The notes: generated by a model from the letters alone, not told the origin. Numbered from the stretch's first letter, positions 138 through 38,647 are shown. The stretch: 64,000 nt of DNA from an uncultured virus (IMG/VR IMGVR_UViG_2061766007_000920) (IMGVR_UViG_2061766007_000920); one strand, 5' to 3'. Program-made: numbers and translations.

Positions 138-1022
138 ATGAAATGCTTATTTTGTGGTAAAGAATTAACCCCGAATAAGTACGGTAGACCTAAAAAATAT
201 TGTTCAGATAATTGTAGGTATAATGCTGATCTGGAAAATAAAAGAATAAAATATACAGGGAAAAGACAAGAATTATGTATTACTTGCGGAAAACCTTTAC
301 CTAAGTTCAAAACAAAATATTGTAGTGAAATATGCGCGAAAAATAAAAAAGCTAAGATTTCAAAAGAGTGCGTAATTTGCGGTAAAGAGTTTAAAACAAG
401 TAGAGAAAACATATTAACTTGTTCAAAAGAATGTAGCAAAATACTTGAAAACAAGAGAGATAGAGAAAGATACAAAAAGAATAATCCCAATGCTAAGAGT
501 ATAAAAGAGATACTTGAACTTTCTCAAAAACGAAAAGAAGTAAAGCAAAAAGAGGTTTTAGAGCGTAAAGCCAAAAAAGAAGCACAGCTTAAAAAAGCCA
601 GAGAAAAAAGAGAAAGGGAAAAGCAGAAGCGAATTGATTTTTGGTTTCACTATAGCAAACTCCATGAGTGCGCGGAATGCGGAGAAATGTTTGTTGCTGA
701 TTACCCGACCAAAAAATATTGTTCTAAGAAATGCGCAAGAGCAAAAAGAAAAGGCTCTAAGCGTTACAACGGGATAACTATTGATAAAGATATTTCTTTA
801 AAAAAATTAGCTAAGAGAGATAAAAATATATGTGCTATCTGTGGAGAATTAGTTGATTGGAATGATTTTACCATTAGTGCGAACGGAGTAGTTATTTGCG
901 GGAATAAATATCCTTCTATAGATCACATAAAGCCGATCAGCAAAGGCGGCTTACATTGCTGGAGTAACATCCAATTAGCTCATAGATTTTGCAATTCTTT
1001 AAAAAGCGATAAGGATAGGTGA
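138..1022 (+). CDS. HNH endonuclease with tandem C2C2 zinc-finger repeats (homing-type)
   Basis: Four CxxCG...CSxxC repeats; C-terminal CAICG...SIDHIKPISKGG...NIQLAHRFCN HNH motif. Confidence 0.9.
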   Translation: MKCLFCGKELTPNKYGRPKKYCSDNCRYNADLENKRIKYTGKRQELCITCGKPLPKFKTKYCSEICAKNKKAKISKECVICGKEFKTSRENILTCSKECSKILENKRDRERYKKNNPNAKSIKEILELSQKRKEVKQKEVLERKAKKEAQLKKAREKREREKQKRIDFWFHYSKLHECAECGEMFVADYPTKKYCSKKCARAKRKGSKRYNGITIDKDISLKKLAKRDKNICAICGELVDWNDFTISANGVVICGNKYPSIDHIKPISKGGLHCWSNIQLAHRFCNSLKSDKDR

Positions 1023-11173: not shown

Positions 11174-12006
11174 TGAGAACATTTAGATTATATGATAATG
11201 ATGGTAACAGATATAACTTAACGTCACGAGATCATCTTTTTTTCTATGCTGTTGATGGTCTTGGGTTCGCTCAGGAAGCTGAATTCCAGAGAATAGAAGA
11301 GAGGTTTGCGCTTCTTGATAGCCATGTTGCACAGGGGAAGGTTGAAGGCACAATTAAGTTTTGGCAACCAGAGGCAGAGCTTCAATACTTCAATTTTTCC
11401 CAGTTTTGCCAAAACAAGCCCATTACTATGGATTATAACAACAACTACGGAACTTACTCGCGTAAGGGAATAATCACTAAGGTAGTAAGGGGCGACGGTG
11501 ACGGGAACGAACTCAGAATAAAGATAGAGTTTACAGCTCTTACGCCTTGGTATAAGACGGTATCAGAATACAATGAGGGTACGATAGTAGGCGGTAAGGT
11601 ATACAACTACACGTATGATTATACATACTCTGATAGTGTTGTTAACACGGTTTCGATTGATTCTGATTCGTATCAGAGTAGCCCCGTAAGGCTTATTATT
11701 TTTGGCGAAGCTGTTAATCCTACTTGGAGGCACTATCTTAATAATGTATTGGTTTCGAGCGGAAAGGTTAACGGTACAGTGCTTGCAAATCACAGGCTCA
11801 TTATTGATACAACAACGATTCCATATAGTATCAAACAAGTTGATATGCTGGGGAATGTTATTTCCGATATGTACCAGCAATCAGATTTTTCAACCCAGAG
11901 ATTTGTGAGATTCGGGCATGGTGTCAACACGGTTACTTTCGGAGCAGACAACACAAACGTGTTAAATGTCGGCGTTGAAGCGGAGATTGAGTATGCAACC
12001 ATATAA
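11173..12006 (+). CDS. Distal tail protein (Dit)
   Basis: Directly after TMP; TPWY motif. Confidence 0.7.
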   Translation: MRTFRLYDNDGNRYNLTSRDHLFFYAVDGLGFAQEAEFQRIEERFALLDSHVAQGKVEGTIKFWQPEAELQYFNFSQFCQNKPITMDYNNNYGTYSRKGIITKVVRGDGDGNELRIKIEFTALTPWYKTVSEYNEGTIVGGKVYNYTYDYTYSDSVVNTVSIDSDSYQSSPVRLIIFGEAVNPTWRHYLNNVLVSSGKVNGTVLANHRLIIDTTTIPYSIKQVDMLGNVISDMYQQSDFSTQRFVRFGHGVNTVTFGADNTNVLNVGVEAEIEYATI

Positions 12007-13069
12007 CATTGAAATTTTCGACACTTCTTTTAATTTAATCCAACATTACAATTCCGGAGTAATTGACTATAAGTTTGACTATCTTTCAACGGTCGAGAAT
12101 TCGGTTTTGGTCGCTTTTAATGACAACGTAAAGAAAGGCGACTATATAAGGCTTGTTAACGATACGGATGATTATTTTGGTTATATAACAGCCATACAGG
12201 TTAATGAATCGGTACAGGGCTTTTCTGAGATCAGATTTAAGCCGTTTATTTCGCTTTTTGATTCGTCAATTCTGTTTGATACAACTTTACAGGGTTCTGG
12301 AACCAGCCTTGAGCAAGCAATCGCTAACTATATTACGGCTTACTGGATTAACAACAGCGATACATCACAGAACATATACGGTCTTACTGTTTCAGTAATC
12401 TCAGTTACTTCCGGTTGGACTTTTCATATAACACCGGATGTAAGCGGCCTTACTAAAGCGATTGTCAACTTTATGAGCTCAATAGTAAGGAGAGCTTTAA
12501 CCAAGTATCAAATAGGCTTATATGTCACGCCTGATTTTCAGAATAAGGCTATTAACGTAGCGATAGGCATAAAAGACGCTTCTACGTTTAACATAGAGGC
12601 AGATTTGCCTTCAGTTATGGAAAAGTCGATTATTCTCAATGAAACGACAGAAGATACAAATAAGCTTGTTATTTACGATCAGGCCGATTTAGCAACGACT
12701 ATAATTTATTACAAGCATCCCGACGGCTCATACAACACATCTAACACGGATAGAATTGTACCGGTTAAATATGCCATGACAAGCGTAGCCGTTGCAAGTG
12801 GTGATACGTTTGCACACGCCGCACAGGATGCCGCAAATAAGCAGTTTGATGTTGATTCGTACAACAACCTTATTGAACTGACCGTTCAGAATGATGATAC
12901 GCTTGTTAATCCTCAGAAAATAAGCATAGGCCAAGCGGTTAACGTCATTACTAACGGAGCATCTTATACATCTATCCTTACAGGGATAGAACGGAGCAGT
13001 AAAACCAAGCTAACATTTGGCTCTATTAGGTTAGACCTTACGAAAATCCTTAAGGGAGGGGGCATATAA
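11993..13069 (+). CDS. Baseplate hub/Tal-like tail protein
   Basis: Synteny after Dit; C-terminal LTFGSIRLDL. Confidence 0.65.
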   Translation: MQPYNIEIFDTSFNLIQHYNSGVIDYKFDYLSTVENSVLVAFNDNVKKGDYIRLVNDTDDYFGYITAIQVNESVQGFSEIRFKPFISLFDSSILFDTTLQGSGTSLEQAIANYITAYWINNSDTSQNIYGLTVSVISVTSGWTFHITPDVSGLTKAIVNFMSSIVRRALTKYQIGLYVTPDFQNKAINVAIGIKDASTFNIEADLPSVMEKSIILNETTEDTNKLVIYDQADLATTIIYYKHPDGSYNTSNTDRIVPVKYAMTSVAVASGDTFAHAAQDAANKQFDVDSYNNLIELTVQNDDTLVNPQKISIGQAVNVITNGASYTSILTGIERSSKTKLTFGSIRLDLTKILKGGGI

Positions 13070-14064
13070 TGGGAATCAATCTTGTTACTTATGCGGCTCA
13101 AACAGTAACGCCGCAAGACGACGCATTAATATATGAAAAAGCTTTACAGGAAAGCGGCATGATCTACGGCGGCACTGTTACGATCAAGAACGCTAATGTA
13201 CTCCATGTTGCGGAAGGCCACGGCGCTTTATGCGGTAGAAAGTTTACTATCGAGGAAACGGATGTTACCGTACCGCTTACGGCTTCCGGTTCCCTTCTTG
13301 GGCGTTTATATATCCATATGGATTTAGCTGATTCCGGAGAGCCTATTTCTTTTCAGGTTGAAACAGCAAACTCATTAACGCCGGTTGTTCAGCAATCCGA
13401 CGTTAATATTAATAATGGTGTGTATGAGATCAATATTGCGACGTTTACCGTTGACACTTCCACGATCAGCAACCTTGTGAACGTAGCACCATTTATTGAT
13501 ATAACCCCAGATTCGGGCTTTAGTGCTCAGAGCAATAATCCTGTTATGAATAAGGTTATCACCAAGGCTTTGGGCGACCCTGAAACAATTGGGGGTAGTG
13601 CAAGCCAGCCATACACTAAAGACGCTTTATTACTTGCCACGGATGGGCAGATTTACGAAGTTACGGCAAATATTGCGCTACATGGTTCAATAGTTAACGG
13701 TGGTAACGTAGCGCCGACAGGCAACATTATTTCGCAAATTAGCAATTTAGCGAACCAATTAAACTTTTCTATTACATCAATGAACTTATCAAGAAGCACA
13801 CTTCCAGCGGGGCAAGGAGTCTCAATCGGAACACTTCCATCAGGCGGTGTGTATCTTGTAAGCGTAAATCTAAGATTACAATCTGGAACTTTTGGAAATG
13901 GTGTCATTGTGTCGCCTTGTGACGGTATTATTCAGAATAATCACGACTATGGGCAACATTTCTGTGTTGCATCTGGTGGCTCTAGCATAATAGTATATAA
14001 CTATTCTGGTAGTCAATTAACGCTACATTCTGGCTCAAGTATAAAATACGTGAAAATCAAATAA
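13069..14064 (+). CDS. Receptor-binding/tail fibre protein with exchangeable C-terminus
   Basis: Last tail gene before lysis; baseplate-anchor-like N-terminus; recombination-like site at codons ~222-229. Confidence 0.75.
   Translation: MGINLVTYAAQTVTPQDDALIYEKALQESGMIYGGTVTIKNANVLHVAEGHGALCGRKFTIEETDVTVPLTASGSLLGRLYIHMDLADSGEPISFQVETANSLTPVVQQSDVNINNGVYEINIATFTVDTSTISNLVNVAPFIDITPDSGFSAQSNNPVMNKVITKALGDPETIGGSASQPYTKDALLLATDGQIYEVTANIALHGSIVNGGNVAPTGNIISQISNLANQLNFSITSMNLSRSTLPAGQGVSIGTLPSGGVYLVSVNLRLQSGTFGNGVIVSPCDGIIQNNHDYGQHFCVASGGSSIIVYNYSGSQLTLHSGSSIKYVKIK
13731..13754 (+). repeat. Left inversion site TTCGCAAATTAGCAATTTAGCGAA
   Basis: 20/24 identical (17 of first 18) to the reverse complement of 14397-14420. 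Confidence 0.75.
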
Positions 14065-14107
14065 ATTGTTAGGACGGTATTTAGCAAAATTTTTCCCATT
14101 AGTATAA

Positions 14108-14420
14108 TCATCTATACTTAATCGCGTTTATATGAGCATATTGAGCAGCCCACCCATAAGCAGTGTTAACCGTAACCCTGATGCGTCCAAGAGAAGGCTC
14201 GAAGATATAATTAGCATCAACGTAATTGTTCGCGGGATTTCCGAAATGCGTCCATATAGTGTTGCCAAAAGGAGTTAATACAATTTGACTCCCAAATCGA
14301 TTTCTTACAACTACATCTTTTGCAGTTTTTAAAACGTTATTCGAATATGAATCAGTAGGGTTGTTAGAGAGGTCGATAGTGTTCCAATTAAAAGAGTTCT
14401 TAAAATTGCTATTTTGCGAA
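14108..14420 (-). CDS. Silent alternative RBP C-terminal cassette (~103 aa)
   Basis: Only antisense ORF in the late operon, no convincing RBS/start, begins at the inverted site, converges on the RBP stop. Confidence 0.72.
14397..14420 (-). repeat. Right inversion site TTCGCAAAATAGCAATTTTAAGAA (minus strand)
   Basis: Inverted copy of 13731-13754 in the same reading frame (SQISNL vs SQNSNF). Confidence 0.75.
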
Positions 14421-14568
14421 CCAAGATTTACCCGCTGATATACCAAAAGTAGGTATAAACAGTAACGCTAATGCTACGTGCAAAGGCTGAATGACGTTTT
14501 TTGCGAACTGAATTAAAACCGAACGTTTAAAGCTTATAAGCAAGACTATTTTAACAAACAATTAATTT

Positions 14569-14594
14569 GGCACCCTGAAAAGGGTGCTTTTATT
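14569..14594 (+). terminator. Rho-independent terminator-like hairpin
   Basis: GCACCCT-GAAA-AGGGTGC then TTTTATT. Confidence 0.65.
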
Positions 14595-14613
14595 ATGAAA
14601 GGAGAAAATAAAA

Positions 14614-14871
14614 ATGGAAACAAAATTTTACGCTCTTGTGATTAGAACATACGACAATGGAACACCTGATAAAACCTCACTATATACATACGATACGCTT
14701 GATGAGGCTATAGCACTGGTTCACACACAGTTCGGGCAGAATGTAGGAGCCGCAACGATTGCGCGTATCATGGCTAAGATAACCAATAGTTTCGGCGCTG
14801 AATATCCTCTTCATACGCTCTATTGGGAGAAGCCAACACCGGAACCGGAGGAACAGGAAGCAACTGAGTAA
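14614..14871 (+). CDS. Hypothetical protein (tail/lysis junction)
   Basis: AAAGGAG RBS, 85 aa, acidic PEPEE tail. Confidence 0.7.
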   Translation: METKFYALVIRTYDNGTPDKTSLYTYDTLDEAIALVHTQFGQNVGAATIARIMAKITNSFGAEYPLHTLYWEKPTPEPEEQEATE

Positions 14872-15348: not shown

Positions 15349-16210
15349 TGTAAGCCATTATCAGGGGCTTATTAATTGGGGATTGGTTAAGGATGAGGGC
15401 AAAAAGTTTGCTATCATGAAATGCCAATATGAAGCCAAAGGGCACCGCAAGGATGAGCAGTTTGATAATAATTACAACGGGTGCGGTTATTACGGCATAG
15501 CAAGGGGCGTATATATCTATATAGCTAGGGCTTCAATGGCTGATATAGAGGGTGACGCTAGAAGCTTACTGAGACACATAGACGGGCGAAAGCTTGAATA
15601 TGGAATATGGCTTGATCTTGAGGATGAGAGCTTAAGAGCCAAAGGTAAGGCATACATTAGGGAGCTTGTTTATAAGTATGCCAGCATCTTTAAAAACGCG
15701 GGTTATTACGTCGGAATATATTGCAATAGGGATTGGTATATAAACCTCATTCACGACAATCTGAAGCATGATTTTGAGTTCTGGATTGCCAGATATCCAA
15801 AACTTGATACCGGCATATATAACCCTTCCTCATTTCTAAAGCCTGATACTTCCCTTGCTGTTGCTTGGCAATATTCAAGCAAAGGAAAGGTTAAGGGCAT
15901 AGATTGCCTCTGTGATCTTGATGTTGATTTTGACGGAGCAATTAACCTGATTGCGGATTTTGACAACTATAACGAGAACCCTTTTAAAGCACCAGAGAGG
16001 ACGCTTAGAAAGGGAATGATTGGCGCTGATATCATGTGGCTTCAGTGGGAACTTGTAATGAGGGGCTATGATCTTGATATAGATGGGATTTTTGGAGAAA
16101 AAACGCAAAAAGCCCTGTTATCTTGCCAAAGCTACGCAAAATTAAAAACGGATGGAATTGCGGGGAATGTTACGATCAGTTACCTCATGCGAAGAGGCGG
16201 GGATATATAA
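15326..16210 (+). CDS. Endolysin, GH25 muramidase with C-terminal peptidoglycan-binding domain
   Basis: GIDVSHYQG, WLDLE, WIARY, WQYSS; LDIDGIFGEKT...DGIAG PG_binding_1-like repeat. Confidence 0.92.
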   Translation: MSEAMGIDVSHYQGLINWGLVKDEGKKFAIMKCQYEAKGHRKDEQFDNNYNGCGYYGIARGVYIYIARASMADIEGDARSLLRHIDGRKLEYGIWLDLEDESLRAKGKAYIRELVYKYASIFKNAGYYVGIYCNRDWYINLIHDNLKHDFEFWIARYPKLDTGIYNPSSFLKPDTSLAVAWQYSSKGKVKGIDCLCDLDVDFDGAINLIADFDNYNENPFKAPERTLRKGMIGADIMWLQWELVMRGYDLDIDGIFGEKTQKALLSCQSYAKLKTDGIAGNVTISYLMRRGGDI

Positions 16211-16338
16211 GCCCGTACTGACATATCACAATTTAATGATATAAGCTATCTTGTAAGGTGGCTGTTAGTGCGGCGATATCCCCTCTGTGATATAATAATC
16301 ATATAGCATACATACCTCTGTATTTATTATTCAGAGAG

Positions 16339-16382
16339 ATAAGCCCGAGAAGTTTGAGAGATACTTCTTGGGCTTATTTTTT
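16339..16382 (+). terminator. Terminator of the lysis operon
   Basis: ATAAGCCCGAGAAGT...ACTTCTTGGGCTTAT followed by a T run. Confidence 0.7.
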
Positions 16383-16521
16383 GTTGTGAAAACAAGTCAA
16401 AAAGAAGTAAAAAGGTTTTAACTTCTTGGCTTTTTGCTTTTAACTTTCTACCATAAACTAAAATCAATAAAATGTATAGAATAATCGACAAAACAAACAC
16501 AAATAAACAAGGTTACATAAA

Positions 16522-16768
16522 TTTCGTGTGCATTTTCGTGTGCATTCGTGAGTAATTGTATTTAGATTTTACTTCTATTTTTTAGAAATGAAGTTTAAAT
16601 AATAGAGTTTAAAAAAGCAGTAACCACGCGGGTTGTAGGGATTTATCCGCGTGGTTACTGAAATGCAAAAATATGTACATTGGAATGCTTATTGGTTTCG
16701 GAAAATAAGGTTGTAAATAGCTTAAAAAGGCGCTTTGTTTTTTTGCGTGTGCATTTTTGTGTGTATTT
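16522..16768. other. attP region with integrase arm-type repeats
   Basis: TTTCGTGTGCAT x2 (16522-16545) and GCGTGTGCATTT/TTGTGTGTATTT (16745-16768) flank a central region with hairpin CAGTAACCACGCGG...CCGCGTGGTTACTG, directly downstream of the integrase. Confidence 0.7.
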
Positions 16769-16770
16769 TG

Positions 16771-17841
16771 TTATTGATTAAAAAATTCATCTTCAATAAA
16801 AGAATTAGCAAGGTTGTTATATTTTCTTGAAGCTTCTGGAAGTTTATCATCATAAAAACGTTGTAAAGCTTTTGAGCCACGTTCCCAGCCGCCCACTTCT
16901 TCTATATATTTCGTCGGTATTTGCAGATCAGAACGAAAACTTGCGGCATAATGTCTTAATGAATGAAAAGAGTAAGATAATCCTAATTTTTTCCCTAAAT
17001 GTTTAAATCTATAATAAATCAAATCATAATTAGTATCTTTAAAAACGAAATCATCTGGATTATCTGATCTAGGTAGCAAATCCATAACTGAAGGCGGTAA
17101 TGTGACAACTCTAATGCTTGAACCAGTTTTCGCCGCCGGTCTATAGAAAAAGTGGTATTTACCGTTTTCGTCTTCAGCCGGTACTATTGTTCCACGAATA
17201 AAAATAGTGTTATCTTCATATGAAATATCTTTAAATCTCAATCCCGCTACTTCTCCACGGCGTAAAGAACCAAAAGCCGCAAGAGCAATCATTGCTTTTA
17301 AATCTCCTTCAGCATTATCTAATAAAAGTTTTATTTCGTGCGTTCGTGGAGCTGTTACTTTTTTGGTATTAACAGAAGGAAGCGTAATTTTAAAATTTGG
17401 ATCAACTTTATAATATCTCATAACTGTTTTTAAAAACTTTAATCTATCCTGTATAGTCGATCTGTTGAGCTTCAAACTCCATTCATTAACCATTTTTTGA
17501 ATGTCCTCATTTTCAATATCATCCAAATGCAAGTTATATATAGAACTAAAAGTTTTTAATTGCTTTTTATAATTATAAGAAGTTGCTTTTGATATAACAT
17601 TTTTCCTATGCTCGATATATTGCTCCATAGCTTCACCAAGAAGAGGTTTTGAATTAGTTTCAATCTTTTTGCTTATTTGCCATTCACGCGCTAATAATTC
17701 AGCTTTTTTCTTTGCTTTTTTTGAATCACCGCCGAATTCTTCTGGTTTTACTGTAAACGATTTTCTGATGATTTTTCCCTTAACTGTTTTAGATGCTTGG
17801 ACACGCCAAGCGCCGCTTGGTAATTTGGTAGCCTTTGCCAT
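16771..17841 (-). CDS. int: Tyrosine integrase
   Basis: LRRGEV, FHSLRH, VGGW, RFY catalytic motifs; N-terminal arm-binding region. Confidence 0.93.
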   Translation of the reverse strand: MAKATKLPSGAWRVQASKTVKGKIIRKSFTVKPEEFGGDSKKAKKKAELLAREWQISKKIETNSKPLLGEAMEQYIEHRKNVISKATSYNYKKQLKTFSSIYNLHLDDIENEDIQKMVNEWSLKLNRSTIQDRLKFLKTVMRYYKVDPNFKITLPSVNTKKVTAPRTHEIKLLLDNAEGDLKAMIALAAFGSLRRGEVAGLRFKDISYEDNTIFIRGTIVPAEDENGKYHFFYRPAAKTGSSIRVVTLPPSVMDLLPRSDNPDDFVFKDTNYDLIYYRFKHLGKKLGLSYSFHSLRHYAASFRSDLQIPTKYIEEVGGWERGSKALQRFYDDKLPEASRKYNNLANSFIEDEFFNQ

Positions 17842-17846
17842 AAAAT

Positions 17847-18233
17847 TTATACTTCCTTTCTTAACTTTCTTAACTGTTTCATAAAATTGATAGTTAGCTC
17901 AATCTCTGAATCAGTACATTTTCTAGCGTTTGATAAAAGCTTTTTTTCGAGAGGCTTTAGCTCTGGGGCTAAGATAATAGGTTTTGGCTTATGCTTCTTA
18001 TTAGCCTTGACCGTAAAGCCGTAATCAAGCTGATAAAAGATATCATCCGGATTGCAGTGCATTCCCTTAGCCGCTTTTTTGATTATGGTAATGCTTGGTA
18101 CAATAGGTTCGCCGCATGTGTTCCTGTTGTTGATAAGCATGTACACATAAGCTTTGGATATGCCTGAATCTTTTACGAATTGCGTCATAGAATTTTTTTC
18201 GGCATATTCTTTTATAAGGTCGCCTAGTGTCAT
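17847..18233 (-). CDS. CI-like repressor (HTH)
   Basis: MTLGDLIK...SGISKAYVYML HTH; divergent from Cro-like gene. Confidence 0.78.
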   Translation of the reverse strand: MTLGDLIKEYAEKNSMTQFVKDSGISKAYVYMLINNRNTCGEPIVPSITIIKKAAKGMHCNPDDIFYQLDYGFTVKANKKHKPKPIILAPELKPLEKKLLSNARKCTDSEIELTINFMKQLRKLRKEV

Positions 18234-18311
18234 GTGCGTTTCCCCTTTCCTTTTTTGTATATGATAATATACAACGCTAGAAAAAATCAATAATTTTTTT
18301 GTTTAATAATA

Positions 18312-20364: not shown

Positions 20365-20893
20365 AAGGCTTGTTTTGTTCTTAATGCAAGCGCCAAAAGA
20401 TAAAGTTTATTGCCTTAAGGAAAAGAAAGAAAAGCGTAGCCTTTCACAAAATTCTTATTACTGGGTGCTACTTGGTAAGGTTGCGATCAAAGCCAAAGTA
20501 CCAGCTTCAGTTTTACATAATAAAAATTTGCGCGATTTAGGGCTTGTTATGAGGTTAAACGACGAACTTATAACAGTTTATATACCAGATACAGAAGAGG
20601 CCGAAAATGAGGCTCTAGGCGCTGATACGTACCACTTAAAACCGACCTCACATCTTAAGGCGGGTAAAAACGGGAAAATGTTCAGGGCTTACGTGATGCT
20701 TAGAGGGAGCTCTACGTTTAACGTTCACGAAATGACCGCATTGCTTGATTTAATGATTCAAGAGGCTGTTTCTGTTGGGGTAGACATAATAAGCCCTGAA
20801 GAGTTAGCACACATAAGGGAGCTTGAATATGCACGAGAGAACAAAAGCCGTAGCAATAAAGCCAGCGGTACGGCTGAAAGTGGAGGCGCGTGA
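20342..20893 (+). CDS. NinB-like recombination protein
   Basis: KRSLSQNSYYW and GSSTFNVHEMTALLD motifs. Confidence 0.75.
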   Translation: MEITGKPERLVLFLMQAPKDKVYCLKEKKEKRSLSQNSYYWVLLGKVAIKAKVPASVLHNKNLRDLGLVMRLNDELITVYIPDTEEAENEALGADTYHLKPTSHLKAGKNGKMFRAYVMLRGSSTFNVHEMTALLDLMIQEAVSVGVDIISPEELAHIRELEYARENKSRSNKASGTAESGGA

Positions 20894-21134
20894 TAATCAT
20901 TGTTGTATCTTTTGCGGAAGCCCACACGCAAGAGGGGAAGCGCACTTTATAAATCGTTCACAGGGCGGGCTAGGCATAGAAGAGAACCTTGTAACAGTAT
21001 GCCGAGCTTGTCACGCGCAAATGGACGACGGGCAAGCAAGAACGATCTATAGGAACTTTGCAGAAAGCTACTTAAAAACCTTATATCCAGATTGGGATAA
21101 GGCAAAGCTTGTTTACGACAAGCATAAAAATTGA
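20829..21134 (+). CDS. Small HNH-family nuclease
   Basis: RDNHCCIFCG...AHFINRSQGG...NLVTVCRACH. Confidence 0.78.
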   Translation: MHERTKAVAIKPAVRLKVEARDNHCCIFCGSPHARGEAHFINRSQGGLGIEENLVTVCRACHAQMDDGQARTIYRNFAESYLKTLYPDWDKAKLVYDKHKN

Positions 21135-26592: not shown

Positions 26593-27583
26593 AAATGTTG
26601 ATTTTAGCATAAATACTGAGATAATCGTATTTGTGCAATAAAAAAATAAGGGAGATAAAGGTATGAGTAAGGAAAAACAAAAGGATGAGGCGATTAAAAG
26701 GCTCAAGAAGATGGACTTAAAGAGCATAATCTTAGAATCGTTTCAGGACAACGGCAAGTTGTTATGTTCTAATTACGGGGAAATAAAAGAAGTACCGGTT
26801 AACATCCTCAAGCAGATCAGAAGATGGGAAGAGCAGTTTGGAGGGCTTGCCTTCCATGTAATCTATAGCGAGCTATACGGCTTTAAAATTTATAGTGCGC
26901 TTTCTGTTTCAAAATATCCGGAAGATTGGCTCTATGAAAACGCGGCTCTTGAAGATAAATGGCCTATAGCCTATACAATCAATCTTACAGAGCCGGATTT
27001 TTCGGAATCTGGACAAATCAACATAATGAACAATGACGGAATATTATTAAGGATGGTGTAAGGGATGATTATTTGTGAGGAAATGACAAAATTACGAAAA
27101 TGGCTTGATGAGCAAGGTATTAAATGGGAGGATATGTCTGAGGATTTGCTAAAAGATAGCCCTGATGAGCTAATTAGTGAAAGCTGGATTGTAAGAACTA
27201 GATTTATTGTTAATAACAAAAAAAGCTCAGTGATTAATGGCTTTAGCACATACGGCGGGTATAGGTTTAGCCCAGATGATAACGAGGGATTGTTAGAAGA
27301 GTGGGGATTATATGAGCAACCTGTTGGCAATCTTACCGCCGAGGATATTATTAACAAAATAAAGCAAATATTAGGGGAGAAAAAAGCATGAATTTTATCA
27401 AAGCAAAAGAATATTTACAGGAACAGAGGATTATTTTTGCAAAAACAATGAATCCGGAAATGAAAGAGGCACTTGAGGCGGCTGATCTGGCACTAACTAG
27501 GTGTATAGAACAGGAGGCAAATATAACATACATTCCGCCTGATTACCTCAAGAGTATTAAATAATAATTTTATGAGGGGGTTT

Positions 27584-29518
27584 ATGAGCAATATCAAATT
27601 ATCAATTATCATTCCTTGCTACAATGCGGAGCCTTATGTTTTCGAACTTCTTGACCGCCTTAACCCGCAAATAACGGACAAAGTAGAAGTTATTCTTGTG
27701 GATGATGGTAGTGATAAGCCTGTTGAATCAAATTACAAGTGGCTTAGGATTGAGCGCCAAGAAAACAAAGGTTGTGCAACGGCAAGGAATAAGGGGCTAG
27801 ACCTTACAAGCGGCGAATATGTTTCATTTATTGATGCTGATGATCTTGTATCAGTAAGATTTGTTCAATCTGTATTTGAAACAATTAAACAAAAGCCGGA
27901 TGTAATAGAACTATCTTGGAGAAACTACGGAAATGGAGCAAAGCATGATTACAAGCTTAATTCCCTGAAAGACAGGCTTCCTAATCCTTCTGTTTGTACC
28001 AGAGTTTTCAGAAGGGCATTTATTGGGGATGTAAGATTTAATGTTAAAAAGGATTCAACAGAGGATGAGGATTTTTCAAGGAAAATAGGCTATCTTATAC
28101 CAGATTCTAAGATAAAACGGGCAATTATAACAGATTATATGTATTTCTATCGTACCGACGTAGTTAATTCTAAGATCAAGAGATACGCCGCCGGTATGAT
28201 GAACACTAAGCGGGTAGTATATTATTATGACGTTGTAACGGCTGATATGAAGTGGCTGTTTGAAGAGATCAAGGAAGAGGATGAGATCAACGAAGTATAT
28301 CTCATGACAAACAGGTGCGACCTTAAGGGGATTGAGCGCTATTGCAAGGTTATTAAGCCCCGAAGTTTCTGGGGACATATAGTAAGAGGCCAGCCATATG
28401 CTCCACTTGTTGAGAAAACACCGCCCTATAAGACACAAATAGTTTTATATCGCAAAGGAATAACCCAGATTGGCGGCCTTAGTAGTTTTATTGATAACTT
28501 CCTTGATAAGTTTATAGATAAGTACGATATTACAATAATGGCTGATACAATCGACGTTATAAGGCTTAACCAGTGGCGAAAGAAAGTTAAGGTTATAGCG
28601 GCAAAGGTTAAGGAAAACGGGGCGATCAGGAACCTTGTAAGCGAAGCACCTTTTGTTATGTGTGACAATCTAATTATGCTAAGTTTCCTTGATTCAATCC
28701 CAAACGGAATAAAAGCCAAGAAAATTATCCGGATGTGTCACGCTTGCAAGACGGATGCAAGATGGAGGATTGAACATGATTACAATGATCTTGTTTTTGT
28801 TTCCGAAACGGCTATGAAGTCACACGGTTACTCAAAGGGTGAGTGTAAGGTTATTCACAACTTGATTAAGAAGGATGTAGATAAGGCGCTTATACTTGTT
28901 TCGGCTACGAGATTCCCAGCACCGGATAAGGGTAAGATAGAATTTAGGATGCGAAAGTTGGCGGAAATGCTGAACGAAAAGAAGATTAAATATATTTGGC
29001 TGAATTTCGCCAATGGAAAGCTCAAGGAACCGCCTAATAACTTCTACAACATGGGAACTAGCTCAGATATGGCAAGCATTATTAAGGCGGCTGATTACGT
29101 AGTACAACTTAGTGATTCGGAGTGCTGGTCTTATAGTTGCCTTGAAAGCCTAGTTAATAAGGTTCCTCTGATCTGTACGCCGTTTCCTTCTACTATTGAA
29201 ATGGGGATTATAGACGGGGTTAACGCTCATATAGTTCCTTTTGATATGAACTTTGACGTTACAAAGCTTTTGGATATTCCTGTGTTTGATTATGAGTACG
29301 ACAATGAAAGCATAATGAAACAATGGGTTGAGCTTCTGGGAGATAAGAAGCCACAAACAAGATATGAGCCGGTAGAATCGGTAAGGGTAAGAGTAAGAAG
29401 AACTTATGATGATGTGCTACTAGGAAAGAGGTTATACATAGGCCAAAAACTATATATGGATAGGGAAAGAGCAGATTATTTACAAGACGTAAAGAAACTT
29501 GTAGAGATTATTTTATAG
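27584..29518 (+). CDS. Two-domain glycosyltransferase (GT-A/GT2 plus GT-B-like) with short C-terminal domain
   Basis: LSIIIPCYN, VILVDDGS, ARNKGL, FIDADD; second domain IGGL...HAC...ADYVVQLSDSECWSYSCLESL. Confidence 0.88.
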   Translation: MSNIKLSIIIPCYNAEPYVFELLDRLNPQITDKVEVILVDDGSDKPVESNYKWLRIERQENKGCATARNKGLDLTSGEYVSFIDADDLVSVRFVQSVFETIKQKPDVIELSWRNYGNGAKHDYKLNSLKDRLPNPSVCTRVFRRAFIGDVRFNVKKDSTEDEDFSRKIGYLIPDSKIKRAIITDYMYFYRTDVVNSKIKRYAAGMMNTKRVVYYYDVVTADMKWLFEEIKEEDEINEVYLMTNRCDLKGIERYCKVIKPRSFWGHIVRGQPYAPLVEKTPPYKTQIVLYRKGITQIGGLSSFIDNFLDKFIDKYDITIMADTIDVIRLNQWRKKVKVIAAKVKENGAIRNLVSEAPFVMCDNLIMLSFLDSIPNGIKAKKIIRMCHACKTDARWRIEHDYNDLVFVSETAMKSHGYSKGECKVIHNLIKKDVDKALILVSATRFPAPDKGKIEFRMRKLAEMLNEKKIKYIWLNFANGKLKEPPNNFYNMGTSSDMASIIKAADYVVQLSDSECWSYSCLESLVNKVPLICTPFPSTIEMGIIDGVNAHIVPFDMNFDVTKLLDIPVFDYEYDNESIMKQWVELLGDKKPQTRYEPVESVRVRVRRTYDDVLLGKRLYIGQKLYMDRERADYLQDVKKLVEIIL

Positions 29519-30131: not shown

Positions 30132-30485
30132 ATGGCAAAGGGTAGCTACTCAAAAACACCCGCCACCACTAAAAGGCCGGAGAGGTTAAGTGCATTAAGT
30201 GCACAGTATAAAGCAAATAAGAAAATAATTCTTGCAACACAATCTATTTGTGGAATTTGCGGGAAGCCTGTTGATAAGTCAATTAAATATCCTGACCCAA
30301 TGAGCCCGACTATAGATCATATTATTCCCGTGGCTCTTAACGGCGACCCTGTGGCGCTTGAAAACTTACAACTTGCTCATAGATGTTGCAATCGAATGAA
30401 GTCGGATAAAATGCCAAATTTTGACACTAAGGTGGTAGAACAAAATCGCAACCTTCCATTGTCGGCAAATTGGCGAACAGACTAG
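30132..30485 (+). CDS. Packaging-associated HNH endonuclease
   Basis: CGICGKPVD...TIDHIIP...NLQLAHRCCNRMKSD; last gene before genome end. Confidence 0.88.
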   Translation: MAKGSYSKTPATTKRPERLSALSAQYKANKKIILATQSICGICGKPVDKSIKYPDPMSPTIDHIIPVALNGDPVALENLQLAHRCCNRMKSDKMPNFDTKVVEQNRNLPLSANWRTD

Positions 30486-32227: not shown

Positions 32228-35200
32228 ATATGGGAACAATAAGAAATGAAATGACAATAGTGCATGATTGGGAAAAAGAAAAAATAGAAAAACTAAGAGA
32301 AGATGCTATAAAAGTGTTTAGTGAAGTTATTAAGCAAGATTTAGGAAATGAAGAATATATTGAAAAAATGATAAGTCCAATAATGGAAAGCTATATAAAT
32401 CGAGAATATACTTTCATTATCAACGGCGATTGCTCAAAACTCGGGTGGGACACATCTGAACGATTCCATAAAGCAAGAATGGAGTGGTGCGAAAAGCATA
32501 AGAATACTCCACAAAATATCATAGTAATAAATTTTGGTGAAGATTACGAGCCTAGTTACATAGTATTTGATAACAGAGCAGAGAAATGGAATGAAGAATG
32601 AAGAAATTAAGAATGTACTTTTTAATACTAGGCACAAAGCCATATCGCAAAAGGGTATCATCTGCCGAAGAAGCAAGAATTATGATTGATGCAATATCAA
32701 GTTTTGTAAACGCAAAGGTTGACGAGGGGGTATTCCCAGACCATTGCAGTACAGCAGGACTTGAGGAATACGACGAAGAAGAAAAAGACTGGGTAACATG
32801 GTACGACGAAGAAGGACATGATTTCGACAAGCATTTTGAGAGAAGGTGAATGAATGACAATACAAGAACTATATGATTGGGGAAAAGAAAATAATATGCT
32901 CGATAAAGAAATAAAAGTGCATGATAGTACTGGAAATTTTGGATATTCACAAGAACCAGAAAAATACAAGACAATTTTCAACGAATTTGTAACGCTGTTA
33001 TGGTAAGGAGGACAAAATATGGAAGTAACGTTTATTGACAAGAAAACGGCGAAGTTTGGTGATATGTGTATAGGTGACACGTTCACTACGGGCGGCGACA
33101 CGGTATACATGAAAGTTTGTGCGTGGGGATATAATAACGCAATGCCACTAAACAATGACCATTGTGGAATGGGTAGGACGTTCTATAAAGACGATGAAGT
33201 AATGCCATGCAAAGCAAAATTGACGGTAGAGATGGGGTGAAGGACAAATGGAATATACCGTAAAGCCGATAGTGTGTGATTATGCTGTTATACGTATAGG
33301 TGGAGACGGAATTGTATGCATTTGCAACATTAGAAGAAATGCAGAATTGATAGCGGATATTCTCAATGGTGACAAAGAAAATTCTTGTGCTTATTCTTAT
33401 GACGTATACCCGTATGCAAAATATAAAGTTGTTGAAAAAGAAAAGAAAGTACAAGAAAGAAAGCGAGAATGAATAATGAATTTAGTTAAAATAGACGGTA
33501 TATATTTCAATATAGACAGAGTGGATGGGATATCATTCGGAAGTAAAACAGGAGAAACACATATATTTGTTGGCGGTTCAGAACATCCTTTTGCCGTTAA
33601 AAGGAATATTGATGAAGTAGCGGAAAGAATGGAAATAGCACACAAAAGGTCTTTAAAAGAACAGGAATAAAAGGAGAAAAGAAGTGATTAAGAGAATAAG
33701 ATATGTTATTGTACGAACCGAAGATGAAGCCGTATTTTGTGGGTTTGCTAAAAATTATCAGTTTAAGACATTAGACGAGCTTGGCGACACAGAGATTAAA
33801 ACATATATGTCAGAAGCTAAAGCAAAAGCAAGTTTCCTCAACAGTTGGTGGAATAGTAAGAAAGAAGATTTTGAGAATGGAACATACAAAGCGGTTAAGG
33901 TATTTCAGATTTTAGAAGAAGCTAAAAAAGAAAGCGAGGATAAATAAGATGACTACTGTAAAAGTAATAGCGGGAATTATTATTTACATGATAATTTCAA
34001 TTCTCACAACAATGCTTTTTCTTTATACAGAAAGAAAAGATGGAATGTCTGCGCAGGAAGTTTACGAAGGAGATGATTTTTATGCAAATTGCGTGGCGGG
34101 ATTTTTATTCCCAATTTCCATTACATTGATAGTAATTATGGCGATAAGTAAATTAATAAAAATAATATGTATAACAATTGTTGAATTAAAGATTGCAACA
34201 GAGGAAAAGGATGAGGAAGAAGATAAAACAGAAGTAGAGCAAATTATAGAAGCAGATAAAGAAAGTGAGAATAAAAAAATGAACAATCTTGAAAAGGCAA
34301 AAGAAATAGTAAAAAAATATTATAAAGATGCCGATTGTGGTATTTTCAACAGCAGAAATGTTCTTGGGGATGGAATGATAACAATATATAAAAATGAAAG
34401 CTTAACCATTGATATTTGTTATAACTATGCATACTTCGAGGTATTAGGATTAACAAAAGAAGAGTTTGAGGAACTTGAAAAATATTACGGCTCTTTAGAA
34501 GACAACGAGGATAAATAAATGGAAAAGAAAAAACTAAAAGCAACAACACAAAAAAGTTATTACGGGAAAGCAATAGTAATAGAAGATAAATTCGGAAATA
34601 AAAGACTGAAAAGCTATAAAACAATAGTAGCAGAAATCACAAAAAAGGGGAAATTCAAAAGGCTATGGGAAGGATATAGCCAAACGACAATGAATCATAT
34701 AAATGAATTTAGAAAAGAAAATGGGCTAGAAAAAATCAATGCAAAAGAATGGAAGAACATGCAAGTAGAAAAGGGAGATGAAAAAAGAAAAAGATGGGTA
34801 TATGTTCTAAGAGATACAAAAAAGAAAACAAAAGAAATATTTGAAATGGAACAAAAAAGAAACACTCTAACAAGAGCTTTAAGAAAAGAAAAATACGGAA
34901 ATTTTCTAGCATTAAAAAGCTTTATAGAAATAGCACACAAAGGAGCGAAAATATATTTAAGTGACAACGCAATTCTATCAATAGAGCAAATTTAAGAGGT
35001 GAACAATGAATATAATAACATTACAAGCATTAACAAAAATGTGCTTAAAAGAAATGGATAAAGGAAACGGGAATAAGGTAATAATGGTAAGAAACAATAC
35101 AAAGTTTGGAAATTTCACACCAATATTAGCAGAATTTGAAGATAACAAAGAAGAAATAAACAAAAATATAAAAACAAGCAGTCCAGAAAACTTTATATTA

Positions 35201-35637
35201 CTAGGGTGAAAAATGAGCGAGAAAGAATTTGAAAGATTCATAAAAAGATACAAAGAAACAAAAATAGCAAATAGAATAATGAATATAACGATAAACGTAA
35301 TGATAATACTGTTAATCATAGTAAATATAGAAATATTAATATTATTAAACATGAGGTGAGAATGAGGTTTATAGCGACAAAAGAGGCAATAAATAAACTA
35401 AATGCATACAAAATGACAGAAATGGAAGTAGCACAAGAGCATAAGGCGCTATGGAATATTGAGCATGAAGGAGGGAATATTGGACAAGCAATAATAAATT
35501 TCAAGAACAAAGATTTAATAATAGCACCAGTAGGCAAAAGAACAGCATTGATATATAAATACAAGCAAGAAATAAAGGGTGATTATAGAGCATTGCCAGA
35601 AATAGAATATAACGGGAAAGAATGGAAAACAAAATAA

Positions 35638-35666
35638 TAGACAAAGCGAATATATATTCGTATAAT
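35638..35666 (+). promoter_or_regulatory. sigmaA promoter TAGACA-N17-TATAAT with palindrome CGAATATATATTCG in the spacer
   Basis: Exact 17-bp spacing; 14-bp perfect palindrome at 35647-35660. Confidence 0.7.
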
Positions 35667-35680
35667 AAAAGAGAAGCGAA

Positions 35681-35917
35681 ATGAAAAAAGATGAATGGAT
35701 TTTAAGCAAAGAGCTAGGAAGAATAAGAAAGTATGGAATACATTTTCAAGCGCAAAGAGCGAATGAAACGCAAGCAGGAAATCAAGCGGAATTAAGATAT
35801 GACATAGTAACAGAAAAGACAAGAGAAGTAATAGTGCCGTACTGTACAATAGAGGAAATAATGTCAGTAACACTAGCGCTAGAAAAAGTAATGGAAAGAT
35901 TGAAAGGTAGTGGATAG
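35681..35917 (+). CDS. Hypothetical protein, first gene of FtsK operon
   Basis: 78 aa directly after promoter; overlaps next gene. Confidence 0.6.
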   Translation: MKKDEWILSKELGRIRKYGIHFQAQRANETQAGNQAELRYDIVTEKTREVIVPYCTIEEIMSVTLALEKVMERLKGSG

Positions 35918-36590
35918 ATTGAAGAAAAGACACGAAATATGGATTGCAATAGCAATAGTTTTAATGATGATTAACGTCATATTTGTAATAATCTCATTAC
36001 CAATATTATTAGTCGTATTTATAGATTATAGTTTATGTAAAAGTAAAAAGGAAATAAAAGAAGAAGAAATAATACCAGAAGAAACAAAAAACCCAGAAAT
36101 CATAAGAGCAGTATATGAAGACATAGAAGAAAGAAAACAAAAAGAAAGAGAATATGAAAAAAGTATAGATGTAAGGCAATTTGAAGGAAGAGAAGATGTA
36201 AAAAAAGAAGAGGTAAAAGAATATATATGGCATCATCAAATAGGAGCAGGAAGAAAAGAAATAGAATTAATAATAAAAAAAATAATAAAAGTATGTAATA
36301 TAACAGAAGAAGAAGGAAAAGAAATAATAGCAGAGCATTACTTAAAAGGAAGAGGAGATTGGGAGAACAACGAAGAAAAGAAGATAGAAAGAGAATATAT
36401 AAGAAAAAGAATACGTGAAAAAGAAAATGATTATAAAAAAGTAGATGAAATAATAAAAAAAGTAGAAAGCAAAATAGGAGAAAGCGAAAAAATAACAAAA
36501 GAAATAAGGGATAAGAAGAAAGAAAATGCAACATATGAATACATATTTCATTATGAAGAATGGTTAAAGAAGAGGAAAAAGAATGAATGA
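35910..36590 (+). CDS. Membrane-anchored protein with charged cytoplasmic domain
   Basis: N-terminal hydrophobic stretch IWIAIAIVLMMINVIFVIISLPILLVVFI; overlaps ftsK start. Confidence 0.65.
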   Translation: MDRLKKRHEIWIAIAIVLMMINVIFVIISLPILLVVFIDYSLCKSKKEIKEEEIIPEETKNPEIIRAVYEDIEERKQKEREYEKSIDVRQFEGREDVKKEEVKEYIWHHQIGAGRKEIELIIKKIIKVCNITEEEGKEIIAEHYLKGRGDWENNEEKKIEREYIRKRIREKENDYKKVDEIIKKVESKIGESEKITKEIRDKKKENATYEYIFHYEEWLKKRKKNE

Positions 36591-37899
36591 AAAAGGATTG
36601 ATGAGATTTTCCGTAGGAATGTTCGCACTAGGACAAATGTTAAAGAAAAACGACAACAAAAGAAAAGAACTTTTCAAAAAGAATAACTATTATAATCCGT
36701 TCAGATTACCACAAATGAATCATCCAGTATTCGGGAAATTATTTACAACCACAACAAAAGGAGCAGAAAGAAATAAAAAAGCAAAAGAAACAGCGGAGAA
36801 AATATGCGATGAGATATATAGATTGGAAAACATAGAAATGATACCGCTTTACTATAAAGAAGGCGCAAGCACAATAAAAATAAAAGTAAAACCAATAACA
36901 AACATAAAGAAAAGCTTCAATATACAACGACAAATAAAATACATAGTAGGAAATGAAGAGGCAAGAATATATCCAGAAGGAGATAGAATAACAATAGAAA
37001 TACCAAACAAAGGCAATGCAGTAAGGTTTGGAAATCTAATAAATGACGTGAAATACAAAATAAATCAAAGCAAAACATACGTACCAATAGGAGAGAATAT
37101 AGAAGGAGAAACTGTATTTGGAGACATAAAAGAAATGCCGCATATGCTAGTGGCAGGAGCGACAGGAAGCGGTAAATCAGTGTTTATAAACGGAATAATT
37201 GCATCGCTATTAATAAAAAACACGCCATATGATATGAAAATGATATTGATTGACCCGAAGATGGTAGAGTTTAGAATGTATGCAGAACTTGACTATGTAA
37301 AATACGTAACAGAGATAAAAGAAGCGATAGAAGTATTGAATAGTCTATGTACAGAAATGGATAAGCGATATGACTTAATGGCATCAAAGGGATGTAGAAA
37401 TATAGAAACATACAATGAAAAATACAAAAATGTAAGACTGCCGAAAATACTACTGGTAGTAGACGAGATGGCAGATATGATAATAAACAAAGCACACGGA
37501 AAGGAAGTAGAACGAAACATAATAAGATTAGCGCAGAAAGCAAGAGCATGTGGAATACACATGGTATTAGCGACACAAAGACCATCAAGAGAGGTTGTAA
37601 CAGGTTTGATAAAAGCAAATATTCCATGTAGAGCATGTCTGGCAGTGACTTCAAGAACAGAAAGCATGATTATGTTAGACCAAACAGGAGCAGAAAAATT
37701 GCAAGGACATGGCGACATGCTATTCTTAGACGGAATAAATAATAGAGAGCCAAAAAGATTACAGGCAGGTTTAATAACAGACAATGAGATAAAAAACCTA
37801 GTAATATCACTAGCATTAGACAACCAACCAGAGTATGCAAATAAATTCAATTGGAATAATAAAGCAGAAGAGATAAGAAAGTATTACGGGAAAGCGTGA
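36583..37899 (+). CDS. FtsK/SpoIIIE-family DNA translocase motor (no obvious TM or gamma domain)
   Basis: PHMLVAGATGSGKS, LIDPKMVEF, LVVDEMAD, RLAQKARACGIHMVLATQRPS, GAEKLQGHGDML. Confidence 0.93.
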   Translation: MNEKGLMRFSVGMFALGQMLKKNDNKRKELFKKNNYYNPFRLPQMNHPVFGKLFTTTTKGAERNKKAKETAEKICDEIYRLENIEMIPLYYKEGASTIKIKVKPITNIKKSFNIQRQIKYIVGNEEARIYPEGDRITIEIPNKGNAVRFGNLINDVKYKINQSKTYVPIGENIEGETVFGDIKEMPHMLVAGATGSGKSVFINGIIASLLIKNTPYDMKMILIDPKMVEFRMYAELDYVKYVTEIKEAIEVLNSLCTEMDKRYDLMASKGCRNIETYNEKYKNVRLPKILLVVDEMADMIINKAHGKEVERNIIRLAQKARACGIHMVLATQRPSREVVTGLIKANIPCRACLAVTSRTESMIMLDQTGAEKLQGHGDMLFLDGINNREPKRLQAGLITDNEIKNLVISLALDNQPEYANKFNWNNKAEEIRKYYGKA

Positions 37900-38495
37900 A
37901 TGGAATGAACAAAAAAACATCATGCATAACAGAAGAACAATTTAATAAGATAATAAATATCATATATAACGGAACAAGTAACGGCAAAATAAAGCCATCA
38001 AAAGAAATAGCGCTAATATTAACAATAACAGGAAATTGTGCGCTAAGAATAGGAGATTGCACAAAACTAAAATTAAAATCATTCATAAAAGAAGGAGGAG
38101 AATATAAGTATAACATAATAGAAGAAAAGACAGGTAAATCAAGAACATGTATCATTCCAAAAGAAATATATGGGATGATTAAAGAATATGCAGAGAAAGA
38201 AGGGAAAGGCGAAGAAGAAAATATATTTAGTATAACAGTAAGAGCAATACAATACAAATTAGCAAGCGTAGCAAAATATTTAGGAGAGGATTATGTAAAT
38301 ATAAGCACACATTCATTCAGAAAATGCGCAGGAATGAGAATATACAGGCTAAGCGGAAATGATATAGAGCTAACAAGAAAGTTTCTAAATCATTCATCAG
38401 TAAGCACAACGCAAAGATATCTTGGCGTAAACAATGATGATATAAACAGAATATTAAAATCAAACTACAAGATACCATTTAAGGAGGAAAAATGA
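37896..38495 (+). CDS. Minimal tyrosine recombinase (catalytic domain only)
   Basis: LRIGD, EEKT, THSFRK, LNHSS, TQRYL = R-K-HxxR-H-Y; 199 aa; GTGA overlap with ftsK. Confidence 0.9.
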   Translation: MNGMNKKTSCITEEQFNKIINIIYNGTSNGKIKPSKEIALILTITGNCALRIGDCTKLKLKSFIKEGGEYKYNIIEEKTGKSRTCIIPKEIYGMIKEYAEKEGKGEEENIFSITVRAIQYKLASVAKYLGEDYVNISTHSFRKCAGMRIYRLSGNDIELTRKFLNHSSVSTTQRYLGVNNDDINRILKSNYKIPFKEEK

Positions 38496-38647
38496 GCTAT
38501 ACGGTCAACATAAGAAATAAATACCATAATTTCATAGAAAAGATAGACGAATTTGAAACATACAAAGAAGCAGAGAATTATATTAAAGAATCACACATAG
38601 ATATTGATAATTCATGCGAAGAATTTGAAATAATAGAGGTAGAATAA

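Follow-up and report, generated by a model that had tools for sequence, protein, structure and literature searches.

How can the tip of a phage receptor-binding protein (RBP) be exchanged at a pair of inverted sites when no invertase gene lies beside them? This question is raised by a locus of an uncultured virus (IMG/VR IMGVR_UViG_2061766007_000920), of which a stretch of 64,000 nucleotides, here called the window, was analysed. In the window, the 3′ end of an RBP gene lies in a 690-bp segment that is bounded by two inverted sites and also holds a second, silent tip on the opposite strand. The segment is very probably a module of a family of RBP-tip shufflons that use a tyrosine recombinase (Rin-like, with an Xer-type enzyme). 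The whole reading, in which the segment is an orphan module of two cassettes that flips with a recombinase supplied in trans, has in our judgement an even chance of being correct. The site and the recombinase clade are newly defined here, and the kind of switch itself is known. The features on which the argument depends are the following, with amino acids abbreviated as aa and open reading frame as ORF.

13069..14064 (+): RBP gene, 331 aa; from ORF and translation, synteny, PHROG tail matches and a structural model
13069..13730 (+): RBP residues 1-221, the constant part, made up of the N-terminal and middle domains; from identity among homologues
13731..13754 (+): site L, 24 bp, with arms TTCGCAAAT and TTTAGCGAA and spacer TAGCAA; codes for S222-N229 (predicted linker helix)
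13755..14064 (+): expressed head cassette, an all-beta domain, running to the stop codon, 110 aa
14108..14396 (-): silent inverted head cassette, 103 aa from the site, stop codon at 14108-14110
14397..14420 (-): site R, inverted counterpart of site L; reads SQNSNFKN in matching codon phase
14434..14489 (+): putative remnant of the leader found upstream of the recombinase gene in relatives; the homology ends at 14489
14500..14507 (-): lone arm-like 8-mer TTCGCAAA, possibly a scar, not significant alone

Two inverted sites in one codon phase

Sites L and R are quasi-palindromic 24-mers in inverted orientation that flank the 690 bp and are identical at 20 of 24 positions, with the differences counted by eye. 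A repeat search returned inverted arms of 25 nt at 13731-13755 and 14396-14420, 84% complementary and 640 nt apart, and agrees with the by-eye comparison; the site pair described in an earlier note on this DNA is therefore real. The 18-nt core TTCGCAAAWTAGCAATTT occurs without mismatch at two places in the window, which are sites L and R. With up to 3 mismatches allowed, 3 matches were observed compared to 0.47 expected, and 2 of 100 shuffles reached 3. No other site-like sequence was found in the window: sites L and R score 4 mismatches to a 23-nt template, and all others score 7.

The site is built of 9-bp arms around the asymmetric 6-bp spacer TAGCAA and encodes the linker SQISN. Among the 27 matches in our site table, two of which are 4-mismatch matches outside any pair, the consensus arms are TTCGCAAAW and TTTWGCGAA around TAGCAA. 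Most of the tabulated sites carry the TAGCAA spacer, and the others vary. At locus L042, TAGTGA is present in both partner sites, so that the spacer co-varies within the locus. Judged from these sites, such behaviour appears typical of tyrosine recombinases.

Translation of the RBP ORF (13069-14064, +) across site L reads ...GNIISQISNLANQ..., also given as ...NIISQISNLANQ...; for the antisense ORF (14108-14446, -) the reading is ...NLGSQNSNFKNS..., and its codon phase relative to the site is the same. Since both ORFs share this phase, inversion would give an intact RBP with a new tip, as the earlier note had claimed. In all 19 full-length proteins fetched, the motif (Q/E)IS(N/K) carries its isoleucine, whereas the silent sites in the table read N, Y, F or I at that codon. 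The residue following N (L, F, C, K, V or I) travels with the head. The exchange must therefore lie within the spacer, at site positions 10 to ~16, and we infer a crossover within the spacer as for a tyrosine recombinase with a 6-bp overlap.

A possible degenerate half-site near 14497-14507 had also been proposed. The 8-mer TTCGCAAA is indeed present at 14500-14507, but it is not significant: the window holds 6 copies compared to 4.6 expected, and 33 of 100 shuffles reach 6. As its copy number is not above chance, we rejected it as independent evidence.

Heads that are shared among tail proteins

The expressed and the silent head, of 110 and 103 aa, show no significant similarity to each other (best BLASTP E 0.026, out of register), consistent with the ~110-aa C-terminus and the unrelated ~103-aa antisense cassette described before. 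In a search among longer proteins, five proteins with the silent head were found (P0003-P0007). Homologues of the silent head, 80-83% identical, form the C-terminus of four full-length tail proteins, and P0007 is a truncated relative. P0004 (324 aa) is 94% identical to the window RBP over residues 1-234 and then continues into a silent-type (P0002-type) head that is 83% identical to the silent head; the junction reads SQISNFANSFNWN. The silent-type head also stands on two unrelated backbones, in P0003, P0005 and P0006, after EISN or QISN. In a model of P0004 the silent-type head folds, with a pLDDT (predicted local distance difference test) of 62-90 by block. Judged by these homologues, the silent head is a genuine RBP head cassette. 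The earlier note had named as a refutation that the antisense ORF might be an independently expressed moron. This does not fit the data: no Shine-Dalgarno-like sequence precedes the TTG of the ORF, promoter-like sites in the region (5 compared to 5.4 expected) are not above chance, and the homologues are the C-termini of full-length RBPs. In metagenome contigs, a search for the silent head gave 162 pattern matches, none of which was confirmed, and in IMG/VR only the window's own contig matched.

A corresponding search with the expressed head among shorter proteins returned four proteins. Three of them are 94-aa ORFs that start at an internal Met and are ambiguous, being either an unfused head or the product of a cut contig. 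P0011 (129 aa, 67% identical) begins with ...GSQNSNN..., so the expressed-head family occupies the silent position there. The expressed head is also found on another backbone (P0012).

A HMMER search with the RBP gave 849 relatives. P0013-P0017 are 83-87% identical to the RBP as far as about residue 230, and P0018-P0019 are 72-73% identical as far as residues 250-260; in both groups unrelated heads follow directly after SQISN. At least nine different heads stand after the same constant region right behind SQISN (P0001, P0004, P0013-P0019). Up to the site, P0004 and P0164 are identical at 227 of 229 positions (99%); beyond it, their heads differ. The same two heads occur on a second backbone (P0003/P0005 compared to P0161, with P0003 and P0161 being 92% identical over 241 residues), and this is the backbone of L039, a recombinase-bearing locus. 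At locus L003, which is 85% identical over RBP residues 1-232, the sites are conserved and the two heads are others; the silent one of L003 was found expressed in four proteins.

Structure of the receptor-binding protein

The RBP was modelled with AlphaFold (AF2) from a 53-row alignment, with a pLDDT of 79.8. The model starts with an N-terminal beta domain, followed by a middle domain, then a helix at residues 220-230 and a C-terminal beta head, and the helix corresponds exactly to the site-encoded stretch. The best Foldseek matches in the PDB were the RBPs of the lactococcal phages 1358 and p2 (probability 1.0). The top entries 4l9b, 4l92, 1zru and 2bsd had E-values of 2e-7 to 1e-6 and low global template modelling (TM) scores of 0.25-0.36, as expected because the chains are multi-domain and flexible. 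Upstream of the RBP gene lie tape measure, Dit-like and tail-protein genes (PHROG tail matches, synteny). By its model, the RBP appears to be of the p2/1358-like type, that is, a multi-domain protein with a beta-sandwich head that is encoded after Dit and Tal. No sequence-level match to the RBP was found in the PDB. Among GenBank phages there was neither a DNA match to 11966-14620 nor a protein match to the RBP, and with the RBP as query in genome contigs none of 90 pattern matches was confirmed.

A Xer-like recombinase beside the same sites in relatives

Scanning IMG/VR for the site core gave 18 stretches in 17 contigs, in which a second site was sought with up to 4 mismatches. An inverted partner 560-1130 bp away was present in five of the 17 contigs (the window's own, L003's, L021, L030 and L032). 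One contig (L002/L027) ends one base from the site, and the remaining 11 hold a single core copy in unrelated contexts. L030 is from an 83-kb genome with terminal repeats. Its 653-aa tail fibre ends with ...NISSQISNLGNY... and is followed by an inverted silent cassette and a homologue of the small ORF described below. Further on lie a 359-aa tyrosine recombinase and two more sites that bound two more cassettes. L030 and L044 have four sites each, and in L030/L041 the sites bound four cassettes with the recombinase in the middle. The L030 recombinase carries the domains PF00589 and PF13495, and its best NCBIfam matches are XerA/XerC/XerD.

With the L030 recombinase as query, six IMG/VR loci and four genome-contig loci were obtained. 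Inverted site pairs lie beside the gene in six of six distinct loci with at least 60% identity (L030/L041, L038, L039, L040, L042, L044) and in none of the four loci with a recombinase identity of 52% or less (L043, L045, L046, L047). The cognate recombinase of these related rumen phages is 335-360 aa long, Xer-like and adjoins the sites. The comparison with Mu Gin and P1 Cin drawn in the earlier note accordingly pointed to the wrong family. An alignment-based scan of IMG/VR for the recombinase returned 14 loci, which were the six already known and eight with 41% identity or less, and no new close relatives; GenBank phages reach at most 37% identity to the shufflon recombinase. Relatives occur in metagenome-assembled genomes (MAGs) labelled Lachnospiraceae and the like. 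A 256-bp cassette that lies by the right site in L041 lies inverted by the left site in L044, with 89.8% identity. On sequence comparison, this appears to be an inversion seen among relatives.

Two cultured Clostridia phages outside these loci encode a Xer-like ‘integrase’ between the last tail gene and the holin, namely Terrisporobacter phage TPELB_ph1 (L048, 17645-18640) and Clostridium phage phiCp-D (L049, 21639-22616). The two genes are 30-37% identical to the shufflon recombinase, and TPELB_ph1 has a separate integrase further on. These genes may be unrecognised tip invertases.

The missing enzyme and the leader remnant

All 101 window ORFs of at least 100 aa were scanned with Pfam. The serine-recombinase domain (PF00239) was found in none of the 101. 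A tyrosine-recombinase domain was found in two of them:

16771..17841 (-): phage integrase, tyrosine type, SAM-like N-domain; from Pfam
37896..38495 (+): 199-aa tyrosine recombinase, catalytic domain only, beside an FtsK/SpoIIIE gene; from Pfam

Neither adjoins the segment, and the statement that no invertase lies next to it is upheld. A tblastn search of the 64-kb window with the L030 recombinase found no homologue (best E 6.5). After site R, the 56 bp at 14434-14489 are 94.6% identical to L040 3872-3927 (E 3e-19), which lies between the site and the recombinase start. In two independent runs, X5 and X8, contigs match the window over 14402-14489 and part from it exactly at 14489 (TTTTTTAGAAACATAAAG...). 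Past this point the X5/X8 sequence resembles L040 from 3928 on, over the 30 letters visible, and would continue into the recombinase gene. On account of the 56-bp leader remnant after site R, we read the recombinase gene as lost in the window's lineage. The remnant suggests a loss by deletion, and the missing adjacent invertase is probably best read as secondary.

Orphan modules are present at other loci as well. The L003 record (85% complete by CheckV) has an integrase only and no shufflon-family recombinase. G007 (L032; 75 kb, terminal repeats) and G008 (L021; 45 kb), each with a completeness rating of 100%, have the site pair together with a silent tail-fibre tip in inverted orientation. 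Neither genome contains a tyrosine or serine recombinase anywhere, so orphan modules also occur in phages that look non-integrating. PF00239 was not found in any of the records G001-G009. The silent head is an intact open frame from the site in four of four orphan loci (window, L003, L021, L032), and the window and L003 share the 18-nt core of site R without a difference, despite unrelated heads.

Site-family sequences in the sequencing runs

In the source run, a 46-bp site-like unitig with 3 differences has a depth of 196 compared to 101-110 for the phage, and a 378-bp unitig with a depth of 96 contains site R next to different sequence. The source sample therefore has a second locus of the site family, at similar depth, which is a possible provider of the enzyme. 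Searching for this second locus by its 30-nt junction pattern gave 0 matches in metagenome contigs and 0 in IMG/VR. In run X6, two continuations leave site L with depths of 8.1 and 2.8, which could be two states or two strains. Parts of the cassettes that are uncovered in X5, X6 and X8 reflect different heads there, not absence. A ‘joint’ 13753>14395 in X8 most probably comes from the quasi-palindromic site matching twice.

Contig ends also fall at site L. An independent 7.9-kb contig of a close relative (L002 / record G003, positions 2-19; 89% identity in RBP residues 1-227) stops one base away from site L, and several Logan contigs in X5, X6 and X8 begin or end within 13719-13755. Assembly breaks like these would be expected where a junction is variable or repeated.

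Proposed mechanism and alternative explanations

In the explanation we favour, the 9-bp inverted arms would bind a recombinase dimer around the asymmetric TAGCAA spacer, with the site being written into the codons of the conserved linker helix (SQISN) between the middle domain and the head of the RBP. Strand exchange inside the spacer between the inverted sites would flip the 690 bp, joining the constant RBP (221 residues) to the 103-aa head and parking the first head in the silent position. The recombinase gene would have been lost from this phage, with 56 bp of its leader left, and flipping would occur only when another phage with the full system, be it a co-resident prophage or a co-infecting phage, supplies a recombinase of the family in trans. 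Several points weigh against this explanation. The flipped form of this exact phage was not found: the source-run contigs show the window orientation only, in a check that used assembled contigs and unitigs of the runs, and contigs drop rare variants. The closest full-length protein with the silent head is only 83% identical there and so appears to be a relative, not this phage flipped. Head variety on one backbone could also come from ordinary inter-phage recombination. By pattern scan, no extra orphan site pair was seen in a recombinase-bearing MAG, and no additional orphan pair in four genomes with recombinase relatives. The second locus in source run X1 is known from the 46-bp and 378-bp unitigs alone.

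It is possible, though we doubt it, that the module is a frozen relic, inherited or acquired from a shufflon-bearing phage without the enzyme. It would no longer flip, and heads would be swapped at the linker by exchange that is homologous or driven by a phage single-strand annealing protein (SSAP). The lack of a family recombinase in the 64-kb window and in the L003 record would agree with this, as would the single orientation in the source-run contigs and the complete genomes G007 and G008, which keep site pair and silent cassette without any tyrosine or serine recombinase. The phage also encodes Sak-like and NinB/Orf-like recombination proteins. On the other hand, a homology of 24 bp is short for general recombination, and a start-less head parked in inverted orientation would be useless without inversion. 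The intact frame of the silent head in all four orphan loci, the site R core kept identical between the window and L003 next to unrelated heads, and the 99%-identical backbone with two heads also speak against the relic. It is very unlikely that the integrase (16771-17841) or the 199-aa recombinase (37896-38495) inverts the segment, as had been proposed in the earlier note. Both are tyrosine recombinases, a class whose chemistry fits a site with a 6-bp spacer, and they are the only two recombinases among the 101 ORFs. However, BLASTP of the cognate recombinase against the integrase (E 0.54) and against the 199-aa recombinase (E 0.37) was not significant, and no site-like sequence was found near the attP (phage attachment site) region or near the 199-aa recombinase. 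The latter has no core-binding domain and belongs, like the FtsK-like gene beside it, to a separate AT-rich island. G009, a complete relative that does bear the recombinase, has a second tyrosine-recombinase match ~23 kb away from the shufflon enzyme. Judged by these comparisons, neither protein seems to be the cognate invertase; the third source suggested in the earlier note, a recombinase from another phage, is plausible. A serine invertase of the Gin/Cin/Hin type that is encoded elsewhere is the least credible candidate, and we consider it extremely improbable. The layout does resemble the Mu G and P1 C segments, in that inverted sites of ~25 bp accompany a constant N-terminus and an alternative C-terminus. 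PF00239 is nevertheless absent from the 101 window ORFs and from G001-G009, and the enzyme that consistently accompanies these sites is a tyrosine recombinase. Furthermore, the site has an asymmetric 6-bp spacer that co-varies between partners, whereas serine-invertase sites have a 2-bp core.

The explanation we favour, an orphan module served in trans, can be extended to the phage community. The SQISN site could be a shared joint of ruminant-gut phages, in which a minority encode the recombinase and act as providers. Many others, among them complete genomes without any recombinase, would keep just a pair of inverted sites and, inside a cell with a provider prophage, flip their heads or trade them by double site-specific crossover. 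As each head pair is flanked by inverted compatible sites, recombinase-mediated cassette exchange between phage genomes might take place. Exchange of cassettes between providers and orphans would explain why the same heads recur on tail-fibre backbones that are unrelated, with the joint in every case at the same codons. We regard this extension as speculative and rather unlikely.

Comparison with known inversion systems

In the R64 plasmid shufflon, the tyrosine recombinase Rci inverts segments between asymmetric sites and thereby swaps the C-terminus of the PilV adhesin. Compared to the window, this is a plasmid system acting on a pilus protein, with another site (sfx) and another enzyme clade, and the enzyme adjoins the shufflon. 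A closer counterpart is the tyrosine-recombinase RBP shufflon Rin in prophages of Bifidobacterium breve/longum (Mavrich et al. 2018, PMC6109161). In that paper, Rin is described as a Xer-like enzyme without arm domain that uses an 11-bp site, the Rc part is related to the phage 1358 RBP, and a trans-supplied enzyme is proposed for a second inverted locus without flanking recombinase. Rin is also reported in Eggerthella lenta prophages (PMC8778435). The switch in the window is therefore not unprecedented, as tyrosine-recombinase RBP shufflons and an orphan inversion with a proposed trans enzyme were described in 2018 (PMC6109161). In both Rin and the family of the window, cassettes for the RBP C-terminus are exchanged through inversion at short sites that lie in frame. 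Rin and the cognate family are both Xer-like tyrosine recombinases that lack an arm-binding domain and are distinct from the phage integrase. Rc according to that paper and the window RBP according to Foldseek both resemble the RBP of lactococcal phage 1358. In contrast, the Rin site is an 11-bp TTCCCTAACCC repeat and the window site is a 24-bp palindromic one with a TAGCAA spacer. The host group differs too, the phages here being from the ruminant gut, with ~40% G+C. The window has two cassettes only and no recombinase, and the cognate enzyme is likened to Rin by its domain layout (core-binding and catalytic) alone.

BV01-like phages of Phocaeicola vulgatus have an active tail-fibre shufflon with all configurations found in reads (PMC13596623, a preprint). 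They likewise have a recombinase-flanked, multi-cassette inversion region overlapping the tail-fibre gene at its distal end, but with a 10-bp motif, another host phylum and the recombinase present beside the region. The Mu G, P1 C, p15B Min and e14 P segments are inverted by the serine invertases Gin, Cin, Min and Pin (as summarised in PMC6109161). They also provide an alternative tail-fibre C-terminus through inversion, but with serine recombinases, none of which is in the window, and another type of site. Literature searches on rumen phage shufflons and on intragenic tail-fibre inversions found no description of this site or enzyme clade, nor any account of a shufflon in rumen phages.

Surroundings of the locus

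On the 3′ side, the RBP gene is followed by an 85-aa ORF, a holin and a GH25 endolysin, with an integrase and a repressor on the opposite strand. Two further features lie between the segment and the holin:

14569..14588 (+): terminator-like hairpin 3′ of the invertible segment; from prediction
14614..14871 (+): 85-aa small conserved phage ORF between the switch and the holin; from positional likeness by eye

The 85-aa ORF at 14614-14871 is outside the switch. Similar small ORFs are found at the same place in L030 (21-nt match) and L003 (by eye), and the switch-less L004 and L005 have small ORFs at that position too (by eye). The window region 16210-18290 holds lysis genes, the opposite-strand integrase and repressor, and early genes, and the same junction is present in L003, L004 and L005. 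Given this gene order, the attP region is not interrupted, and the contig resembles a tandem lysogen or an unintegrated phage genome (circular or concatemeric) rather than a simple prophage.

Other parts of the window contain additional elements. The region 33949-38977 is an AT-rich island (29-32% G+C) that encodes an O-antigen-ligase-like membrane protein, an FtsK/SpoIIIE-type ATPase and the 199-aa recombinase, and it looks like a small integrative element between two phage regions. In the second, minus-strand phage-like region, 55885-56976 (-) encodes an IS605-type TnpB with OrfB_IS605, Cas12f1-like TNB and helix-turn-helix (HTH) domains. A 648-aa two-domain glycosyltransferase (27572-29518, +), with a GT2 match and a weak GT1 match below the cutoff, is encoded in the early region; it may be a moron that modifies surface polysaccharide and could bear on receptor variation. 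Four paralogous ORFs with a DUF551 domain are spread across both phage regions (25075-25458, 30741-31067, 31742-32227, 63508-63903), and four HNH endonuclease ORFs lie in the window (138-1022, 20823-21134, 30132-30485).

Implications

The host range of gut and rumen phages is set by the tips of their RBPs. At this locus the tip can be a plug-in cassette, with the recombination site built into a conserved linker helix, and phages can carry such a cassette system without its enzyme. For annotation, TPELB_ph1 and phiCp-D suggest that ‘integrase’ genes of Clostridia phages that lie between tail-fibre and lysis genes may encode tip invertases. If orphan modules are indeed served in trans, the effective host range of a phage would depend on the other prophages in the infected cell, and heads could move between unrelated phages at a defined joint. 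This bears on how virome diversity is read and on the prediction of hosts from RBP sequences.

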